Under the pieces are notes generated by a model. It was not told the origin of the DNA, made no database searches, and worked only from the letters and a program-made list of their open reading frames with translations. 64,000 bases of DNA from Chloroflexota bacterium (GTDB lineage: Bacteria > Chloroflexota > Anaerolineae > UBA2200 > JACIWT01). Positions 3,057-50,933 of the stretch are shown in pieces (the stretch's first letter is position 1; each line of letters opens with the position of its first letter). A program made the translations under genes and the position numbers. The stretch spans positions 14,782 to 78,781 of the forward strand of contig JACIWT010000002.1 in NCBI GenBank assembly GCA_014360825.1. Direction: 5' to 3'.

Positions 3057-3133
3057 CGGGGCGTGGCGCAGACCGGTAGCGCGCAGCGTTTGGGACGCTG
3101 AAGTCGGAGGTTCAAGTCCTCTCGCCCCGACCA
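3057..3133 (+). tRNA. tRNA-Pro (anticodon TGG), CCA encoded
   Basis: Cloverleaf CGGGGCG...CGCCCCG acceptor stem; anticodon loop TTTGGGA; TPsiC arm GGTTCAAGTCC. Confidence 0.85.
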
Positions 3134-3134
3134 A

Positions 3135-3206
3135 GCGGGTGTAGCTCAGTGGTAGAGCTCCTGCCTTCCAAGCAGGCTGTCGCGGGTTCAAATCCCGTCG
3201 CCCGCT
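3135..3206 (+). tRNA. tRNA-Gly (anticodon TCC)
   Basis: GCGGGTGTAGCTCAGTGGTAGAGC...; anticodon loop CTTCCAA; GGTTCAAATCC T-arm; no encoded CCA. Confidence 0.85.
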
Positions 3207-10065: not shown

Positions 10066-10148
10066 TGGGGCGGGAGGGATTCGAACCCTCATGGAGTTGC
10101 CTCCAGCGGATTTTAAGTCCGCAGCGTCTGCCGTTTCGCCACCGCCCC
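10066..10148 (-). tRNA. tRNA-Leu (anticodon TAA), long variable arm
   Basis: Reverse complement GGGGCGGTGGCGAAACGGCAGACGCTGCGGACTTAAAATCCGC...; anticodon loop CTTAAAA; extra arm TGGAGGCAACTCCATGA. Confidence 0.85.
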
Positions 10149-10192
10149 AAAATGAAAAGAGCAGCCTCGCTACCAGCCCCAAAAACATACAG

Positions 10193-10264
10193 AGGCGACG
10201 ATCGGATTTGAACCGATGATCGGGGTTTTGCAGACCCCTGCCTTAGCCACTTGGCTACGTCGCC
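10193..10264 (-). tRNA. tRNA-Cys (anticodon GCA)
   Basis: Reverse complement GGCGACGTAGCCAAGTGG...GGGGTCTGCAAAACCCC...GGTTCAAATCC; anticodon loop CTGCAAA. Confidence 0.85.
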
Positions 10265-10268
10265 CCAC

Positions 10269-10343
10269 TGGAGCGGAAGACGGGATTCGAACCCGCGCCC
10301 CTCTCCTTGGCAAGGAGATGCTCTACCGCTGAGCCACTTCCGC
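10269..10343 (-). tRNA. tRNA-Gly (anticodon GCC), CCA encoded
   Basis: Reverse complement GCGGAAGTGGCTCAGCGGTAGAGCATCTCCTTGCCAAGGAGAGGGGCGCGGGTTCGAATCCCGTCTTCCGCTCCA. Confidence 0.85.
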
Positions 10344-10348
10344 CCATA

Positions 10349-10421
10349 TGCCGAGGCCCAGAATTGAACTGGGGACACCTTGATTTTCAGTCAAGTGCTC
10401 TACCATCTGAGCTACCTCGGC
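10349..10421 (-). tRNA. tRNA-Phe (anticodon GAA)
   Basis: Reverse complement GCCGAGGTAGCTCAGATGGTAGAGCACTTGACTGAAAATCAAGGTGTCCCCAGTTCAATTCTGGGCCTCGGCA. Confidence 0.85.
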
Positions 10422-42922: not shown

Positions 42923-43032
42923 GCAAGGTTAAGGGAAACACTTTCTTGGCAAGCCCAACGCCAAAGCCTTTGCCAGATGGGGCTTTTGTACTCCTCAGAA
43001 AATGCAGTAGAATAAATTTAGAAGGAGATGTT

Positions 43033-44154
43033 ATGGCCAATCATTGGATCAGCGAGGATCTCGTCTCGCGTCTGAAAGCAGCATTGGGTGATATCTTCGC
43101 CGTGGAGGATACCACAATAGGGCAGCAACCAGAGGCTCCGATCCGATTCCGTGGCCGGTTGCTTGTGCCATCTGAACAAGCCTTTGCGCTGATTTCGTCG
43201 CGGTTTCGGGAACTGGGATACACTCCCATCTTGCGCCGCGCCGATGGGCAAGATGTGATCTTCGCTGTGCATGGCGTACCCGAACAATCAACGGTCTTCA
43301 GCCCAGTGGGCGCATTGCTATTTGTTTTGACGCTACTATCGGTTTGGTTTGTGGGAATGACCTGGAATGCGCCTCCTGAGGCTCAAGATCTTGCTGGTAT
43401 CTTCCGCTACCCACTTAGTGGACTACCGCATTTAATCACCCTGATGACCATCCTCGTTGGCCACGAACTAGGTCACTATTTCGTGGCCCGACACTTCGGT
43501 CTGCCGGTGACATTGCCTTACTTCATACCCCTGCCCGTACCACCTTTCGGGACAATGGGCGCAGTGATCCGCATGAAATCACCACCGCCCAATAAGCGGG
43601 TTATGTTGGCAGTTGGTGCGGCGGGCCCACTAACCGGTATCCTGCTGGCAATACCCCTGCTACTGATCGGCCTTTTGAGGTCACAGGTCCAGCCTCTCCC
43701 GACTGAGGGGGGATATTACATGGAGGGCAACTCTATCCTGTACCTCGTGCTCAAGTTCCTGGTATTTGGGCGGGTATTGCCCAGTGCTACAGAGGACGTT
43801 TTCATTCACCCGATCGCCTTCGCTGCCTGGGGTGGCATCTTGGTCACGTCGTTGAACCTGTTGCCGGCCGGGCAGTTAGATGGTGGACACATTGCCTACG
43901 CTCTTTTTGGCAAGCGAGCGCGCCAGGTAACTTGGCTGGCTTTAGGGCTGAGTCTGGTGCTCTCATTGTTGTGGAGAGGGTGGTTGTTGTGGGCAGCGCT
44001 TATCTTACTCCTTGGGCAGCGCCACGCCGTGCCACTGGATGACATCACACCTCTGTCTGCGCGGGAGAAGGTCTTCGCTGCTTTCATGTTATTGGTGTTC
44101 CTGTTGGTTTTCACGCCGGTGCCACTGGTGATAGTGGCGGAAAGCACTGTTTGA
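43033..44154 (+). CDS. site-2 protease / peptidase M50-family membrane metalloprotease
   Basis: HELGH zinc motif within a TM helix, multiple TM segments. ATG after GAAGGAGA (the track ORF extends 29 codons further upstream). Confidence 0.8.
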   Translation: MANHWISEDLVSRLKAALGDIFAVEDTTIGQQPEAPIRFRGRLLVPSEQAFALISSRFRELGYTPILRRADGQDVIFAVHGVPEQSTVFSPVGALLFVLTLLSVWFVGMTWNAPPEAQDLAGIFRYPLSGLPHLITLMTILVGHELGHYFVARHFGLPVTLPYFIPLPVPPFGTMGAVIRMKSPPPNKRVMLAVGAAGPLTGILLAIPLLLIGLLRSQVQPLPTEGGYYMEGNSILYLVLKFLVFGRVLPSATEDVFIHPIAFAAWGGILVTSLNLLPAGQLDGGHIAYALFGKRARQVTWLALGLSLVLSLLWRGWLLWAALILLLGQRHAVPLDDITPLSAREKVFAAFMLLVFLLVFTPVPLVIVAESTV

Positions 44155-44285
44155 CAAAATCTACTTTTCACACTATTATAATAACCAGACAATTTATTCG
44201 CGAGTTTGTCTCAAAAAAATCTCTATAGCCTAGTTCGAAGAGTTTTCGGCCGTTGAGGGAAAATTAACAGACCGGGTGGGTCGGA

Positions 44286-44426
44286 ATGGCCAGAGTGCCT
44301 AGCCAAAAGCAACGGGCGACCTGGTGGACGATGGCGTGTAACTCAGTGGAAACTGTTGACATTAGGGTGTATTTACCCTGGTGGTGTAGTCCTGCGTGCG
44401 GACTCAGACATCACCAGGGTTTTTGA
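44286..44426 (+). CDS. candidate 46-codon leader peptide MARVPSQKQRATWWTMACNSVETVDIRVYLPWWCSPACGLRHHQGF with two Trp-Trp codon pairs; reads through the terminator arm and stops inside the U-tract
   Basis: ORF translated by hand. TGG TGG at 44322-44327 and 44379-44384. Weak SD GGGTGGG 5 nt upstream. Not in the ORF track (<60 aa). Confidence 0.3.
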   Translation: MARVPSQKQRATWWTMACNSVETVDIRVYLPWWCSPACGLRHHQGF

Positions 44427-44437
44427 TTTGGTTTTGG
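44376..44437 (+). terminator. intrinsic terminator / attenuator in the liv leader: 11-bp stem CCCTGGTGGTG...CATCACCAGGG with an inner hairpin, then TTTTTGATTTGGTTTTGG
   Basis: Seen in sequence. 220 nt after the M50 stop and 130 nt before the liv SBP start. The 5' arm sequence CCTGGTGG is duplicated at 44320-44327. Confidence 0.55.
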
Positions 44438-44566
44438 GTGTTCCACAACGATCCTCGCATCTCTGGTGTAAATGAGCGACTTTTCCGAAGGAGGTGATGT
44501 GTAGTAGGGCCAATCTCTTTTGGGTCTATGGGCGAAACTTTTGTGAAACAAGAGGAGGGAGATCCC

Positions 44567-45709
44567 ATGTACAAGAGAGTTATGCTGTTGCTATTGGTTC
44601 TGACCCTGGTAGGGGCGCTTGGTGCGTGTGCTCCCGCGGCCCCGGCTGAGATCAAGATCGGCGTCAATGCCGAACTCACCGGCGGTATCCCCGTTATCGG
44701 CGCTTCTTGCAAGAATGCGGCGGAGATGGCCGTGAAGGAAGTGAATGATGCTGGCGGCCTGGAGGTTGGTGGCAAGAAGTACAAGATCGTGTTGCTGGTC
44801 GAGGACAACGAGGATAAGGCCGAGTCGGCGGCAGCAGTAGCCCAAAAATTGAACACCGCCGGGGTCCTGGTACATATTGGCGCGAACGCCAGCCGCAACG
44901 CCATCCCTGCCTCGACTGTCTGTGAAGACGCCAAATTGCCCATGATCAGCCCCTGGTCCACCAACCCCAAAACTACAGCCGGCAAGAAATACGTCTTCCG
45001 GGCCTGCTTCATTGACGATTTCCAGGGAGTGGTAGCCGCCAAGTTCGCCATCAACGATCTGAAAGCCAATACCGCCGCTGTTCTCTACGACGTGGCCAGT
45101 GAGTACAACAAGGGCATCGCCGAGGTCTTCAAGAAGACTTTCGAGGAGGCGGGCAAAAAGGTAGTGGCTTTCGAGACCTATACCACTGGCGACAAAGATT
45201 TCTCCGCCCAATTGACCAAGATCAAAGCCTCCGGTGCCGATGTCTTATTCCTGCCCAACTACTACAGTGAAGTGCCACTGCAGGTGCAACAAGCCCATAA
45301 ACTGGGGTACACCGGCACCATCTTCGGCAGCGATAGCTGGGGCAACCTGGAAATCATTGACCTCTGCGGCGCCGATTGTGAGGGTCTCTTCTTCACCACC
45401 CACTATGCTCCAGACATTGCTACGCCCAAGGCGCAGAAATTCATTAAGGCCTACGAAGCGACCTATGGCAAGACCCCCGACGACGTGGCCGCTCTAACCT
45501 ACGACGCCTTTGGGTTGGCTTTCCAGGCCATCCAGGCGGCAGGCAAGATTGACCGCGAGGCGGTGCGCGACGCGTTGGCCAGCATCACCAAGTATGAGGG
45601 CGTCACCGGGACAATGGAATTCAGGGGCACCGGCGATCCGGTGAAGAGCGCGGTGATCATTCAGATCAAGGGCGGTAAATTCACATATTACACCTCTGCC
45701 GCCCCATGA
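44567..45709 (+). CDS. ABC transporter periplasmic substrate-binding lipoprotein, LivK/LivJ (branched-chain/hydrophobic amino acid) family
   Basis: Signal peptide + lipobox LVGALGAC; type-I PBP fold. ATG after GAGGAGGGAG (the track ORF extends 13 codons further upstream). Confidence 0.85.
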   Translation: MYKRVMLLLLVLTLVGALGACAPAAPAEIKIGVNAELTGGIPVIGASCKNAAEMAVKEVNDAGGLEVGGKKYKIVLLVEDNEDKAESAAAVAQKLNTAGVLVHIGANASRNAIPASTVCEDAKLPMISPWSTNPKTTAGKKYVFRACFIDDFQGVVAAKFAINDLKANTAAVLYDVASEYNKGIAEVFKKTFEEAGKKVVAFETYTTGDKDFSAQLTKIKASGADVLFLPNYYSEVPLQVQQAHKLGYTGTIFGSDSWGNLEIIDLCGADCEGLFFTTHYAPDIATPKAQKFIKAYEATYGKTPDDVAALTYDAFGLAFQAIQAAGKIDREAVRDALASITKYEGVTGTMEFRGTGDPVKSAVIIQIKGGKFTYYTSAAP

Positions 45710-45847
45710 TCTTCGCTGTGAAGCCCGGCGTTTCACCCTGAAGGGTAAACAAGGTTAGGTGGGTTTCGTGGAAACGAAACCCGCCTAACCCCATTTTGAA
45801 TCCTCAAGGAACAGTTGCAGGGAATATACGAAGACAGGAGATTCCAA

Positions 45848-46753
45848 GTGCAATTTATCATCCAACAAGTATTGAATGCTCTGCAATTAGGCAGTGTGTA
45901 TGCGCTCATCGCTTTGGGCTATACCATGGTCTATGGCATCCTGCGCATGATCAACTTCGCTCACGGCGACATTTTCATGGTGAGCACCTACTTGGGCTTC
46001 TTCGCTGCTTCATTTTTGCTAGGGCGGGCGTTGCATTTACCTGCGGCTTTCACTTTTGTACTAACTTTGGTTCTGGCTATGATTGGCACCTCGCTTTTGG
46101 CAGTACTCATCGAGCGGGTAGCCTACAAGCCACTCCGCCAGGCCCCGCGAATCTCGGCGGTGATCACAGCCCTGGGCGTAGGTTTGGTTTTGGAGAACAC
46201 GACCTTAGCTACTATCGGCCCGGAGCCGCGTATCTTACCACAGGTAATCCCAGTGATTAACCTCAACATTGCTGGAGTAGCCGTCTCCAGCATCCAGATA
46301 GTGATCCTGGTTATCTCTGCTATCGTGATGTTCGTCTTAGACACCATAGTGCGAAAGACGATGACTGGCATGGCTATGCGCGCTATTTCCTTTGATAAGA
46401 CAGTGGTCCCTTTGATGGGCGTGCCCATGGATCGCATTATCTCCATCACTTTCGCACTGGGTTCTTCGATGGCCGCGATTGGTGGAGTCCTCTATGGCAT
46501 CGCCTACATGATAGACCCTTATATGGGCATCCGCATTGGCTGGTGGGCCTTCATTTCTGCGGTGGTGGGAGGCATCGGCAATATCCGCGGGGCTATGGTT
46601 GGCGGCTATATATTGGGGTTCGTGGAGATCTTCGTGGCCGCCTTTTTCCCCTCCACTTACCGTGACTTTGTGGTCTTTGCTTTGCTCTTGGCTCTCCTGG
46701 TGTTCAAGCCCACAGGGATCATGGGTGTGCCGGTAGTGCAACAAAAAGTGTAG
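45848..46753 (+). CDS. livH: branched-chain amino acid ABC transporter permease LivH-like
   Basis: VLNALQLGSVYALIALGYTMVYGI N-term. GTG after AGGAGA. Confidence 0.85.
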   Translation: MQFIIQQVLNALQLGSVYALIALGYTMVYGILRMINFAHGDIFMVSTYLGFFAASFLLGRALHLPAAFTFVLTLVLAMIGTSLLAVLIERVAYKPLRQAPRISAVITALGVGLVLENTTLATIGPEPRILPQVIPVINLNIAGVAVSSIQIVILVISAIVMFVLDTIVRKTMTGMAMRAISFDKTVVPLMGVPMDRIISITFALGSSMAAIGGVLYGIAYMIDPYMGIRIGWWAFISAVVGGIGNIRGAMVGGYILGFVEIFVAAFFPSTYRDFVVFALLLALLVFKPTGIMGVPVVQQKV

Positions 46754-46763
46754 GATAGAGACT

Positions 46764-47723
46764 ATGAAAAGACGTTGGCTAATTGCACTGGTCCTGGTGT
46801 TAATCTTTGCACTGTCCATCTTGCTCCCCCATTTTGGAATCCTGAACCTGTATCTACAGCAGGTGATTATGTATGTGGGGATTAACATCATTCTCACCAT
46901 CAGCCTGAACCTGGTGAACGGTTATATGGGGGAGTTTTCGGTGGGTCATGCTGGGTTTATGGCCATTGGCGCTTACGTCTCTTCGCTGCTGACTGTGCTT
47001 GTTTTTCCCAAGCCCTGGGGGCCGTTTGTGTTCCCATTGGTATTAGTCCTGGGTGGTCTCGCTGCGGCATTGGCGGGTTTGATCGTGGCTTTTCCCTCCT
47101 TCAAAACGCGCGGCGATTACTTGGCTATCGTTACCCTGGCTTTTAACATGATCATCAAGAGCGTGCTGGAGAATATTGATGCGATCGGAGGCCCCCGTGG
47201 CTTTATGGGCATGAGCAAGTTGACCAACGTAGCGTGGGTCTATGTCTGGGTGCTCATCACCATTTTCGCCATCCGCAATTTCATATTCTCCAGTTACGGG
47301 CGGGGTATCCTTTCCATCCGCGAGGATGAAGTAGCCGCGGAGTTAGTCAGCGTGAACACGCGCCAAGCCAAGATCCTAGCCTTTGTCATCTCATCCTTCT
47401 TCGCCGGGATTGCCGGTGGACTCTTTGCCCACGTGCTGCAGTTCATCAACCCACGCAGTTTCACTATCCTGAAATCCACCGACGTTTTGGTGATGGTCTA
47501 TCTGGGCGGTATTGGCAGCATCACCGGTTCCATATTGGGCGCTTCCATATATACGGTTCTGCTGGAGTTACTGCGGCCATTGCAGGTCTGGCGCTGGGTG
47601 GTAGGGCCACTTTTGCTCGTCATCCTGATGATCACGCGTCCGCGGGGTATTTTTGGACTGCGCGAGGCACGTGTGCTTATCCCTGCGGAGGAGGTGGGGG
47701 CAGATGCCGCTGCTACAAGTTAA
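46764..47723 (+). CDS. livM: branched-chain amino acid ABC transporter permease LivM-like
   Basis: Multi-TM permease with the GxxGFMA motif region. Confidence 0.85.
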   Translation: MKRRWLIALVLVLIFALSILLPHFGILNLYLQQVIMYVGINIILTISLNLVNGYMGEFSVGHAGFMAIGAYVSSLLTVLVFPKPWGPFVFPLVLVLGGLAAALAGLIVAFPSFKTRGDYLAIVTLAFNMIIKSVLENIDAIGGPRGFMGMSKLTNVAWVYVWVLITIFAIRNFIFSSYGRGILSIREDEVAAELVSVNTRQAKILAFVISSFFAGIAGGLFAHVLQFINPRSFTILKSTDVLVMVYLGGIGSITGSILGASIYTVLLELLRPLQVWRWVVGPLLLVILMITRPRGIFGLREARVLIPAEEVGADAAATS

Positions 47724-48471
47724 AAGCCTCAGCCACTATTTTGGTGGACTGAAGGCAGTCTCAAATTTCAACCTCAACTTGGAGCCTGGGGAACTGGTGG
47801 GTATCATCGGCCCCAACGGGGCGGGTAAAACCACGGTTTTTAACCTGATTACCGGCGTCTACCGACCTACTGAAGGACAGATATTTTTCAACGGGCACAA
47901 TTTGGTGGGGCTACAACCCCACGAGATTATCAACAAGGGCATTGCCCGCACCTTCCAAACCATCCGCTTATTCAAAGACCTGAGCGTTCTGGATAACGTG
48001 CGCATCGCCTGTTACTCCAAGGTTCAGTATACCCCTTGGGCCTCCTTCCTCCGCACCAGGGACTTTCGCGCAGAGGAACAGAGAATCCGAGAGGAATCAC
48101 TGCGTCTTTTGGATATCTTCAATCTGAGCGGTTATGCTCATGCCCAGGCCAAGAACCTGCCTTATGGGGAGCAGCGGCGCTTGGAGATCGCTCGGGCTCT
48201 GGCGACCAAACCCAGACTCCTGCTGTTAGACGAACCAGCCGCAGGGATGAACCCAGGGGAAATCAAGCGTTTGATGGAACTCATACAGTGGATTCGCCGT
48301 GAGTTTGATCTAACCATTATCCTGATCGAACATCAGATGCGGGTGGTCATGGGCATTTGTGAACGCATTCAAGTGCTGGACTTTGGCGAGACCATTGCTG
48401 AAGGCAAGCCCAAAGAAATCCAAAACCATCCCCGTGTGCTGGAAGCCTATCTCGGAAAGGGGGTGGCATGA
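47704..48471 (+). CDS. livG: ABC transporter ATP-binding protein LivG-like
   Basis: GPNGAGKTT Walker A, LSGGEQ-like signature, Walker B LLLLDEPAAG. Confidence 0.85.
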   Translation: MPLLQVKSLSHYFGGLKAVSNFNLNLEPGELVGIIGPNGAGKTTVFNLITGVYRPTEGQIFFNGHNLVGLQPHEIINKGIARTFQTIRLFKDLSVLDNVRIACYSKVQYTPWASFLRTRDFRAEEQRIREESLRLLDIFNLSGYAHAQAKNLPYGEQRRLEIARALATKPRLLLLDEPAAGMNPGEIKRLMELIQWIRREFDLTIILIEHQMRVVMGICERIQVLDFGETIAEGKPKEIQNHPRVLEAYLGKGVA

Positions 48472-49193
48472 TGACCTTAGATGCGCCCTTGCTGGCGGTC
48501 CAGGATCTGGTCGTCTCCTATGGGAATATCAGGGCCCTGCGTGGTATCTCTTTCGAAGTGCATGAGGGGGAGATTGTGACCCTCATCGGGGCCAACGGTG
48601 CGGGCAAATCCACTACTTTGCGGGCCATCTCGGGGCTCGTTCCTATCGAGAGCGGCAGTATTACGTTTAACGGCAAAGACTTGCGAGCCTATCCCCCTCA
48701 CCGTATCGTCGAGTTGGGCATCTCCCACGCGCCGGAGGGCCGAGGCATTTTCGGCAACTTGACGGTGATGGAGAACCTCAAACTGGCCACTTATGCCCGC
48801 AAAGACAAGGATGAGATCAACAAAGACTACCGGCGCGTCTTCGACCTCTTCCCGCGATTGGAGGAGCGCAAGAACCAGATCGCAGGGACGCTCTCCGGCG
48901 GCGAGCAACAAATGCTCGCCATGGGCCGTGCTCTCATGACCCGTGGTCGTTTGATGCTCTTGGACGAGCCTTCCATGGGCCTGGCTCCCATCTTGGTGCA
49001 GGAAATCTTCCGCATTTTGCGGGAGATCAACCAGTCAGGCACGACCATCTTGTTGGTCGAGCAAAACGCACACATGGCTTTACAGGTAGCCACCCGTGGC
49101 TACGTCTTGGAGACGGGCACCATCACGCTTCAGGGCCCGACACAAGAACTGGTGAGCAATCCCAAGGTGAAGGAGGCGTATCTGGGAGGATAA
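48468..49193 (+). CDS. livF: ABC transporter ATP-binding protein LivF-like
   Basis: GANGAGKST Walker A, LSGGEQQML signature, LMLLDEPS Walker B. Confidence 0.85.
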   Translation: MMTLDAPLLAVQDLVVSYGNIRALRGISFEVHEGEIVTLIGANGAGKSTTLRAISGLVPIESGSITFNGKDLRAYPPHRIVELGISHAPEGRGIFGNLTVMENLKLATYARKDKDEINKDYRRVFDLFPRLEERKNQIAGTLSGGEQQMLAMGRALMTRGRLMLLDEPSMGLAPILVQEIFRILREINQSGTTILLVEQNAHMALQVATRGYVLETGTITLQGPTQELVSNPKVKEAYLGG

Positions 49194-49203
49194 CCGGGAG
49201 ATA

Positions 49204-49734
49204 ATGCAGGGTGCAGTGTGGCTGGGCAGTGGGTGGGAAAGATCGGCCTTAACAAAGTGCCTGATTGCAGTCGTTATTTCATTGGTAGTGAGCAACGCTT
49301 GCGTTGTCTCCCGAACACCCGAACTTTCGCTTTCACCCAAACGAATCCACTTGGAGGAGACTACGAGGGAGGAAAGCGTGGACTCCCGGGAGATTTTCCT
49401 TATCTGGGAGGACCTAGCAGGGGCGGGTGTGGAGTTTCAGTTGTCTCTCGTGCGCCCCCTCACTTATCTCCATTTCCGTGTTCCTCAGGCAGCGGACTTC
49501 TGGGTTCAGTGTCGGCAACTCGATGGCGATTTGGAGTTATCCCTTGGCTATCTCAATGATGAGCAAGAAAAAGACCACAAGATTCGACCCCATTTCTGGA
49601 AAACAGCAAGCCGAGCAGAACTCTTGATTGACGCAACTTGGAAACAAGACGTTTACTATGTGCTGGATGCCAAGGCGGAGATCCTGCCAGAAATGCCTTG
49701 GGTGCTTGTCGTACAAGTCTATGGGAGCCGGTAA
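49204..49734 (+). CDS. hypothetical lipoprotein
   Basis: N-terminal hydrophobic segment with possible lipobox VSNAC; no recognisable domain. Confidence 0.45.
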   Translation: MQGAVWLGSGWERSALTKCLIAVVISLVVSNACVVSRTPELSLSPKRIHLEETTREESVDSREIFLIWEDLAGAGVEFQLSLVRPLTYLHFRVPQAADFWVQCRQLDGDLELSLGYLNDEQEKDHKIRPHFWKTASRAELLIDATWKQDVYYVLDAKAEILPEMPWVLVVQVYGSR

Positions 49735-49763
49735 GCCGGCGGTAATTTCGAAGGAGGAAGGGG

Positions 49764-50933
49764 TTGCACAACGAGATTACTTGGGCGGAAATAGACCTAG
49801 ACGCTATTGCCCACAATGCCCGTCAGTTAAAAAAATACGTGGGTGAGCGGACTGAGTTGATGGCGGTTGTCAAAGCGAATGCGTACGGTCATGGCGCTGT
49901 GCCTGCGGCTCGGGCGGCTTTGGAGGGTGGTGCGTCGCGTTTAGCCGTCGCTCGCGTGGACGAGGGACTCCAATTGCGGTCTGGCGGGATCGCTGCGCCC
50001 ATCCTGGTGATGGGCTATGCCATACCGCCGCAGGCGGGGGACATCGTCCGCCATCGCCTCACCCCAACGGTGAACACACTGGAACTGGCGCAGGCCCTTT
50101 CCGCCGAGGTGGCCCAGCAAAAGGCTGCTCCCCTGCCCGTTCATCTGAAAGTGGATACAGGTCTGGGCCGTTTTGGCCTTTTGCCGGGCGAAGTCCTGGA
50201 TTTCGCGCGGGCGCTCGTGTCTTTGCCCGGCCTTTTCCTAGAAGGCTTCTGGACTCACTTCGCTTGTGCCGATGAGGCGGATAAATCGTACACTTACCAG
50301 CAGTTTGCGTTGTATTGTCAGGTGGCACGGCAGTTGGAGGAAGCAGGCATTGCCATTCCCATTAAGCACGTGGCCAATAGTGCAGCTACACTGAGCCTCC
50401 CCGAGATGCACCTGGATATGGTGCGCTGTGGCATCACTATCTATGGTCTGCGTCCCTCCGAAGAAGTGAAAATGGTGGTCCCCGTACGCCCCGCGATGAC
50501 CATTAAAAGCCATGTGGCGCGGGTGCGCACTCTGCCAGCGGGCTCTGGCATCAGTTACAACCGCACGTATGTAACTGCAAGACCGACACCGGTGGCCTTG
50601 GTGCCCATAGGATATGGCGATGGGTACCGCCGCGGTCTGTCTAACAAAGGTGCGGTACTCATCCACGGCCAGCGCGTCCCAATCATCGGGCGAGTGTGCA
50701 TGGATCAATTTATGGTGGACGTGAGCGCCATCCCGGATGTTCAACAAAATGATGAGGTGGTGGTGCTGGGGCGTCAGGGCGAAGAGGAGATCAACGCCGA
50801 GGAAATCGGTGCACTGGTGGGTACCAACAATTATGAGACAGTAGCTGCTCTCCTGCCAAGGGTCCCGCGAGTGTATCTGCGCGAGGGCCAAGTAGTTGGC
50901 AGGCAAACTATAGTGCAGACATCTTACGGCTGA
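49764..50933 (+). CDS. alr: alanine racemase
   Basis: PLP-binding VVKANAYGHG motif. TTG start after AAGGAGGAAGGGG. Confidence 0.85.
   Translation: MHNEITWAEIDLDAIAHNARQLKKYVGERTELMAVVKANAYGHGAVPAARAALEGGASRLAVARVDEGLQLRSGGIAAPILVMGYAIPPQAGDIVRHRLTPTVNTLELAQALSAEVAQQKAAPLPVHLKVDTGLGRFGLLPGEVLDFARALVSLPGLFLEGFWTHFACADEADKSYTYQQFALYCQVARQLEEAGIAIPIKHVANSAATLSLPEMHLDMVRCGITIYGLRPSEEVKMVVPVRPAMTIKSHVARVRTLPAGSGISYNRTYVTARPTPVALVPIGYGDGYRRGLSNKGAVLIHGQRVPIIGRVCMDQFMVDVSAIPDVQQNDEVVVLGRQGEEEINAEEIGALVGTNNYETVAALLPRVPRVYLREGQVVGRQTIVQTSYG

Follow-up and report, generated by a model that had tools for sequence, protein, structure and literature searches.

The region of interest lies in the window (the whole stretch of 64,000 nucleotides that was analysed) between a gene encoding an M50 peptidase (42946-44154) and the operon livK-livH-livM-livG-livF (44567-49193, plus strand), which according to Pfam encodes an amino-acid ABC transporter of the HAAT family. 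The sequence-only reading, made before any database search, had placed a LivK-family binding protein and LivHMGF here, and this was borne out by the Pfam matches, which comprise LivK (Peripla_BP_6, 1e-61), two BPD_transp_2 permeases, and two ABC ATPases. The source genome belongs to the Anaerolineae (Chloroflexota), the closest relatives of its LivK are all found in Anaerolineae MAGs, and a Chloroflexi MAG has an annotated protein identical in sequence to the livK product. Among solved structures, the Leu/Ile/Val-type binding proteins 3td9, 4gnr, and 1usg come closest and, judged by its sequence, the LivK of the window is a generic HAAT protein of this type. As to the proposal that Trp or aromatic amino acid availability is what matters here, no sign of a Trp preference was detected in LivK by structure and family comparison.

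Immediately after livF, and on the same strand, an open reading frame of 176 amino acids is followed by alr, encoding alanine racemase (49204-50933 for both). The 176-amino-acid product has no Pfam or NCBIfam match. If this frame and alr were co-transcribed with liv, they may hint at a relevance of alanine or D-alanine to the transporter. Elsewhere in the window, the Rfam scan at gathering threshold located two tRNA clusters (3057-3206 and 10066-10421), with two tRNAs on the plus strand and four on the minus strand.

Promoter, terminator and antiterminator in the livK leader

A sigma-70-type promoter (TTGACA-17 nt-TATTAT, 11 of 12 consensus matches) is present at 44151-44179 on the plus strand, its -35 hexamer overlapping the stop codon of the M50 gene, with a predicted transcription start near 44186. 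It is the sole promoter-like site within 43900-44800, and TTGAC(A/C)-N17-TAnnAT occurs at the matching place in L161, L081/L162, L167, L170, L169, L177, L179, L083, L084, and L173. The 5' leader of the liv operon (44180-44566, plus strand, about 380 nt) has a GC content of 46.8%, compared with 55.6% for the window, and contains in this order a conserved sensor-like domain, an antiterminator, a terminator, a box resembling a Shine-Dalgarno (SD) sequence, and the true ribosome-binding site. Homologous leaders align with it end to end.

The hairpin located about 190 nt 3' of the promoter, within the livK 5' leader, is a genuine conserved intrinsic terminator that has been kept as a structure (44375-44425, plus strand). 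Its lower stem pairs 44375-44386 with 44409-44420 and its upper stem 44388-44392 with 44400-44404; the U-tract (44420-44424) begins with TTTTT directly after the stem and continues with more T-runs. The arms previously described, CCCTGGTGGTG (44376-44386) and CATCACCAGGG (44409-44419), as well as the tail TTTTTGATTTGGTTTTGG, are indeed there, and the stop codon of a short open reading frame (TGA, 44424-44426) falls within the U-tract. The strength attributed to this terminator was also confirmed, with a folding energy of -29.0 kcal/mol and a z-score of -5.26, none of 200 dinucleotide shuffles being as good; a simple terminator scan did not call the hairpin of the window. In an alignment of 13 sequences, 91.7% of the cells were paired, compared with just 32-46% in controls in which the partner strand was slid, and changes on both sides were observed in 7 of the 15 pairs, as exemplified by CCCTGGTGA/TCACCAGGG versus CCCTAGTGA/TCACTAGGG; the compensatory changes that keep the stem are of G:C to A:U. 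The covariation score was not reached by any of 500 shuffles, and RNAalifold gave further support to the terminator.

The first part of the terminator is also the partner of a second hairpin. Region 2, CATTAGGGTG (44360-44369), is predicted to form 10 base pairs with TACCCTGGTG (44374-44383), giving an antiterminator (44360-44383, plus strand) of -13.9 kcal/mol that forms 9 pairs to region 3, the 5' arm of the terminator, and ties up the first 9 nt of this arm. When alternative folds were predicted, as the sequence-only reading had proposed, the antiterminator was the minimum free energy (MFE) fold in the absence of region 4, the 3' arm. In 11 of 12 relatives, the segment just upstream of the terminator likewise folds into an MFE hairpin with 7-11 region-3 pairs, with only 3 in L001. 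The terminator position that covaries is matched in the antiterminator by U.G, U-A, or C-G, all of which can pair. With shuffled 5' strands as the control, the z-score is -4.2 in the window and ranges from +0.3 to -2.5 in the relatives; as the hairpin stands out clearly only in the window, the argument for conservation of the antiterminator rests mainly on the position of the pairing. In stability, the antiterminator falls far short of the terminator (-14 vs. -29 kcal/mol), and termination could be constitutive without a stabilising factor. The earlier claim of two alternative partners for the 3' arm held in part: mutually exclusive pairing exists, but the competitor is the hairpin formed by 44360-44369 and not the upstream copy of CCTGGTGG, an 8-mer that occurs twice in the leader.

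Preceding the antiterminator strand, a small hairpin (CAGT-GGAA-ACTG, 44344-44355, plus strand) was recovered in the folds, and a variable hairpin occupies this place in all relatives, its counterparts being CAG[TGCGC]CTG in L161, AGCAG[AAT]CTGTT in L081, and GATGC[GTCGCTG]GCATC in L083. Further upstream, primary-sequence blocks such as GTTGAAAC.ATG..GTTCCT.CCGC..GTC[AATGGC]GAC are strongly conserved, and small hairpins show compensatory changes (GTC/GAC, ATC/GAT, GGTG/CACC, GCGGT/ACCGC, GGCAG/CTGCC, and CGCGA/TCGTG). RNAalifold returned no consensus structure upstream of the terminator, and block alignment with MAFFT gave hairpin registers in this upstream part that were inconsistent and differed between lineages, with no defined aptamer fold. 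The hexaloop hairpin GUC[AAUGGC]GAC is absent in the window and in L161. In the window, MFE folds predict a helix between ACCGGGT (44271-44277) and ACCTGGT (44319-44325) that would close a domain holding the loop of a conserved AUG (44271-44325, plus strand); its counterpart in L161 is CCAGG:CCTGG, with a G.U to A-U change. A search with RNAduplex found no consistent anti-antiterminator partner, the lineages differing in the use of an AUCCC-type block, a far-5' CCCAGUAGCU-type block, or region 1 of the window.

Downstream of the terminator lies the SD-like box GAAGGAGGTGAT (44487-44498), which the fold pairs with ATCTCTTTTGG (44513-44523; element at 44485-44523, plus strand). The box, (G)GAAAGGAGGTGA, is a full complement of the 16S rRNA 3' tail, a generic tail being assumed, and 68 distinct orthologue leaders from Anaerolineae and some other phyla (L001-L180 upstream regions) have it at a distance of 67-163 nt before the livK start; no conserved start codon or open reading frame follows it in these 68 leaders. 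By analogy, it resembles either a STAB-SD mRNA-stabilising element or the anti-anti-SD of a translational switch. Next to livK itself (44538-44566, plus strand), a pyrimidine tract CTTTTG is predicted to pair with CAAGAG and is followed by the SD AGAGGAGGGAG and the spacer to the start codon, giving a partial sequestration of the SD in the fold; a CYTTTC-type tract before the livK SD is conserved among relatives.

Distribution of the element

The comparisons were based on 160 LivK-orthologue loci taken from genome and metagenome collections, together with 20 more obtained through exact sequences of the closest homologues. Some of the closest relatives, with LivK 86-98% identical, share the layout of the window (L161, L081/L162-166, L167/168, L170/171, L169, L177/178, L179, L083, L084/85, L180, L001, and L172), a comparative set that is small and amounts to about 10 distinct sequences from about 6 lineages. 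In this layout, the promoter is followed by a leader of 185-290 nt and the terminator and then, after a short spacer, by the SD-like box, from which the livK start is about 75-85 nt away. The layout is missing in L002, L003/L082, and L173-176 (LivK 90-93% identical). With an nhmmer profile, matches were obtained only upstream of the closest LivK orthologues, and the single match in the window (44250-44424) had an E-value of 2e-31; no further copies beyond livK leaders were detected by nhmmer in the window or in any of the 180 fetched loci.

The element accompanies livK beside five different upstream genes (M50, glnA, rpsB, rpoD, and larA), of which glnA and rpsB lie on the opposite strand. In L179, L083, and L084, just 8-10 nt, approximately, separate the U-tract from the SD-like box, which leaves no space for a second promoter; therefore, liv can be expressed in these relatives by terminator read-through only. 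The sequence-only reading had itself raised the alternative that the hairpin serves only as the terminator of the M50 gene. This is excluded, because a conserved promoter precedes the hairpin, the upstream genes vary, and some liv operons need read-through. Taken together, these data identify a real, lineage-restricted, unclassified terminator/antiterminator leader of a LivK-type transporter.

Several variants were noted during these comparisons. In L173-L176 (LivK 93% identical), the promoter and the SD-like box are kept and the sensor/terminator domain has been swapped for a different sequence, which (about 1230-1400 in L173) contains an imperfect long hairpin GTAGTGCGC...GCGCTCACTAC, followed by CTTTTGTTT, that was not called by the simple terminator scan. 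In the leader of L084/L085, about 75 nt of GC-rich sequence are inserted after the conserved upstream blocks and ahead of the antiterminator, and the GCGTTCCTAGGCG block occurs a second time, right where transcription is predicted to start. A second, unrelated type of livK leader (L005, L015, L017, L019, L020, L023, L024, L026, L033, L090, L098, and L107) is located about 100 nt before the livK start and comprises a conserved TTGACAAAAC...TATACT promoter, then GCCGTAAGAGTGTCCCC...(A/G/T)TG-CNC-GYC-CCT-GAC-TCT...GTTCCGCCAGCCAC, and then the SD; seven of its loci were scanned against Rfam and gave no match. A third type, present in some Anaerolineae, has a short hairpin GAACCCAATGGAGGGTTC directly before the livK SD, and Bacillota orthologues have a conserved TTCAAAGGTTTCCGTCTCTCGGTTGAATAAC block in front of the livK SD; the loci with leaders carrying this hairpin or this block were L043, L045, L047, L050, L037 and L049, L053-L056.

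The short open reading frame and its tryptophan codons

The leader had been proposed to sense Trp through translation of a leader peptide. The 46-codon open reading frame on which this proposal was built (44286-44426, plus strand; translation MARVPSQKQRATWWTMACNSVETVDIRVYLPWWCSPACGLRHHQGF*) is present, as are its two tandem Trp codon pairs (TGGTGG at 44322 and 44379) and the duplication of CCTGGTGG, whose copies at 44320 and 44377 share one frame at a spacing of 57 nt. The product has no Pfam or NCBIfam match. That two such pairs would be very unlikely by chance proved an overstatement, as they represent one 8-mer occurring twice and are not independent; among the stop-to-stop frames of 30-80 codons in the window, 34 of 943 contain at least one WW and 8 of 943 at least two.

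Conservation does not extend from the start codon to the frame. Across 11 homologous leaders, the start is AUG in 10 and UUG in L180, but the open reading frame that begins there has 8, 23, 27, 27, 28, 28, 34, 34, 43, 46, or 70 codons, so that neither the frame, nor its length, nor its Trp codons are conserved, and the claim of Trp sensing through a translated leader peptide is not supported. The number of Trp codons per frame varies from 0 to 4, with none at all in L167/L170, and WW occurs only in the window (twice) and in L161 (once), being absent from the 9 other leaders. Depending on the lineage, the reading of the invariant CCCT in the terminator arm is in frame 0, 1, or 2, and the same applies to the P-b motif and to the most conserved upstream block, TCAATGGCGA. 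Even in L161, whose LivK is 98% identical, a deletion of 1 nt in a hairpin loop converts L-P-W-W into M-R-P-G-D with loss of the second WW, and the resulting frameshift lengthens the open reading frame, which then runs across the terminator and ends at the TGA within the SD-like box. Among the 21 codons shared by the window and L161 before the frameshift, 11 differ, with 4 synonymous and 7 non-synonymous changes.

Signals for translation of the frame are uneven. The SD duplex before the AUG has -8.9 kcal/mol in the window, within the top 9% of all ATGs, -5.2 in L161, and from -1.7 (L084) to -9.6 in relatives, compared with -16.3 kcal/mol for livK. In some lineages, a moderate SD-like sequence is located 5-9 nt ahead of the AUG and, given this and the near-invariant AUG itself, translation of the short frame may play some part. 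The position of the stop codon also varies. Counted from where the terminator 5' arm begins, it lies 48 nt downstream in the window and anywhere between 86 nt before and 121 nt after this point across leaders; in L161, it is found 60 nt further on. Where the stop lies beyond region 4, a non-stalled ribosome would cover regions 2-4, unlike in trpL. A peptide start 'M-x-V-P' shared across leader types was also considered, being found in 24 of 155 upstream regions and in 14 of 155 reverse complements; it was taken as a coincidence at the RNA level because the matches cluster by relatedness and occur without an SD.

The role of the repeated sequence appears to lie in RNA pairing. The 3' strand of the predicted helix 44271-44325 is the first copy of CCTGGTGG, i.e., the first 'WW', and the homologous segment of L083 is CCTTAGGTGGA, with the reading G-G-W; in RNA terms, the first CCUGGUGG corresponds to CCUUAGGUGGA of L083. 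According to RNAduplex, the first copy can also pair with region 2. The second UGGUGG belongs to the strand common to terminator and antiterminator, and relatives carry CCCUGGUGA or CCCUAGUGA there. From the alignments and the modelled folds, the Trp codons are best seen not as sensors but as a side effect of the 8-mer CCUGGUGG, which is repeated in the RNA and acts there as a helix strand. In the lineage of the window and L161, the P-b hairpin may have been replaced by a copy of the terminator strand, in which case this sub-lineage would have rewired the switch. More generally, tandem 'regulatory' codons in a short open reading frame can be by-products of RNA-pairing repeats, and leader-peptide attenuators are callable only where both the frame and its regulatory codons are conserved.

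Possible modes of regulation and comparison with known leaders

On balance, the leader is probably an RNA switch that senses an effector, either a small molecule or a protein, and this is the reading that we consider the likeliest. Transcription would begin at the promoter 44151-44179, and the nascent leader would fold either as the antiterminator (44360-44369 with 44374-44383) or as the far more stable terminator (44375-44420 plus the U-tract), both of which use the strand ACCCUGGUG. The choice would be set by the conserved upstream domain of about 110 nt (44250-44359), with its sequence blocks and small hairpins, which presumably binds the effector, a small molecule such as the transported amino acid or an RNA-binding protein. 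Transcripts that read through would then meet a second layer formed by the SD-like box and the partly sequestered true SD. As for the direction of the switch, scarcity of the cognate amino acid would be expected to yield more transporter. LivK, a generic Leu/Ile/Val-type HAAT protein, points to no particular effector. A more specific version of this reading, held only tentatively, is that of a new riboswitch class of an Anaerolineae subclade, in which a multi-hairpin domain (GUUGAAAC-AUG-GUUCCU, GUC[AAUGGC]GAC) would bind the transported amino acid or a related metabolite and pick between the 10-bp antiterminator and the terminator.

Regulation may not be involved at all. The promoter, a leader of about 240 nt, and the terminator could constitute a stand-alone sRNA or a constitutive, leaky 'insulator', with liv expressed from a fixed level of read-through and the hairpin of the window also ending M50 transcripts. 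The great stability of the terminator and its good U-tract are consistent with this, as is the fact that the M50 gene has no terminator of its own ahead of the promoter; moreover, neither an aptamer fold nor an effector was found, and the terminated product would be a discrete conserved RNA. Nevertheless, an overlapping antiterminator that is conserved in position is hard to explain without switching, and an operon whose transcription always had to pass an unrelieved terminator of about -29 kcal/mol would hardly be expressed. Furthermore, relatives retain the terminator next to an opposite-strand glnA or rpsB, which indicates that ending the upstream gene is not its purpose, and we regard the unregulated alternative as doubtful. 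Antitermination by an RNA-binding protein, in the style of ANTAR or otherwise, was weighed separately, although it overlaps with the protein arm of the preferred reading. The protein would bind small hairpin loops (an AAUGGC-type hexaloop and an AAUG loop) and stabilise a hairpin over the base of the terminator. Three features fit: A1 and G4 are present in the hexaloop of GUC[AAUGGC]GAC in 7 of 8 lineages, the overlap of the short antiterminator with the terminator is confined to the base of the latter, and upstream conservation is mainly that of primary sequence. The hexaloop hairpin is, however, entirely missing from the window and L161, the second hairpin (the antiterminator) has loops of 4-11 nt in which A1/G4 is not conserved, about 50 nt lie between the two hairpins, which are thus non-adjacent, and no candidate regulator gene was identified, the 176-amino-acid frame of the operon having no family match; this mechanism is unlikely.

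Attenuation of the trpL kind would require translation of the 46-codon frame, with ribosomes stalling at UGG-UGG (44322-44327) under scarce Trp-tRNA and freeing region 2 (44360-44369), so that the antiterminator forms and liv is read through. The window and L161 do have the formal four-region layout, in which region 1 (CCUGGUG) pairs with region 2 (CAUUAGG) at -9.5 to -11.3 kcal/mol, 2:3 pairing has -13.9, and 3:4 pairing -29 kcal/mol, and for this reason the model is retained, albeit as very unlikely. In both genomes, tandem Trp codons in region 1 are in frame with the conserved AUG, and the SD-like duplex of the window, already mentioned, ranks high among ATGs. Against this, WW is missing from the 9 other leaders and L167/L170 are without any Trp, the frame relative to the conserved RNA motifs varies by lineage, with L161 losing the second WW by frameshift, and the SD duplex drops to -5.2 kcal/mol in L161 and -1.7 in L084. 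In addition, with a stop past the terminator, a moving ribosome would mask regions 2-4 and not region 2 alone; in longer context, region 1 favours pairing with 44271-44277; two WW in a short open frame are not rare here (8 of 943); and the binding protein shows no sign of a Trp preference. The resemblance to trpL claimed by the sequence-only reading therefore survives as far as a terminator with a mutually exclusive antiterminator is concerned, and fails on the regulatory codons and the placement of the stop.

Chloroflexota, and particularly Anaerolineae, are abundant and mostly uncultured, and to our knowledge hardly anything has been learned about the control of nutrient uptake in them. A promoter-leader-antiterminator-terminator module outside the catalogued families would be a concrete case, open to testing, of amino-acid transport under riboregulation in this phylum, and the liv leader is a candidate for a new effector-sensing RNA.

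Known RNA families were searched with Rfam 15 (4227 families), using the gathering threshold for the window and E-values for the leader region, as well as for 10 close relatives and 20 more distant liv loci. No family, including T-box, lysine, glycine, and ykkC, matched the window, the 10 relatives, or the 20 further loci, and all that came up were chance matches to families of eukaryotes or cyanobacteria, which stayed far short of the gathering scores. Weinberg et al. 2010 (PMC2864571) list a livK motif of Pseudomonadales (RF01744), and this motif did not match the leader in these scans either. A T-box was discarded, with no RF00230 match at E <= 10 in the window or E <= 5 in the 10 relatives and neither the T-box sequence nor a specifier loop recognised on reading the leader; a UGGU candidate varies to UAGU with a compensating change and is thus a stem pair. 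TRAP-like (G/U)AG repeats were not found at regular spacing on reading the leader.

Compared with leaders of the E. coli trpL type, the liv leader is alike in combining an intrinsic terminator with a mutually exclusive upstream hairpin and, in this one genome, in having a frame with tandem Trp codons that overlaps 'region 1'; the helix energies of the window leader fall within the range known for E. coli trpL. It differs in that the frame, its length, and its Trp content vary, the SD is weak or absent, the stop lies past the terminator, and the genes controlled are those of a Chloroflexota transporter and not of a biosynthetic operon. LivK-family binding proteins are common among members of ANTAR regulons, and the loop rule for ANTAR targets asks for A as the first and G as the fourth nucleotide of a hexaloop. 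A short hairpin over the terminator base and the A1/G4 hexaloop hairpin of the relatives recall the systems of AmiR, NasR, and EutV. Unlike in these, only one of the two required hexaloops is present in the relatives, the spacing is wrong, the window has no hexaloop hairpin, and no ANTAR gene was identified, and an ANTAR target as such was rejected.

The box GAAGGAGGTGAT can be compared with STAB-SD, the stabilising SD described for the cry3A (cry3Aa) 5' UTR of Bacillus thuringiensis (PMC12970973). Both are SD sequences, here about 70-160 nt upstream of the start, with no conserved open reading frame, whereas the box of the liv leader belongs to another phylum, has a terminator upstream of it, and is predicted to pair with a pyrimidine tract. 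Finally, although the liv leader departs from the riboswitch and T-box leaders of amino-acid transporters in having no Rfam match, a very narrow distribution, and an aptamer fold that is only putative, it shares with them a context of amino-acid uptake and an architecture in which the promoter leads into a conserved domain of about 110-190 nt, which is succeeded by an antiterminator and a terminator sharing one strand.
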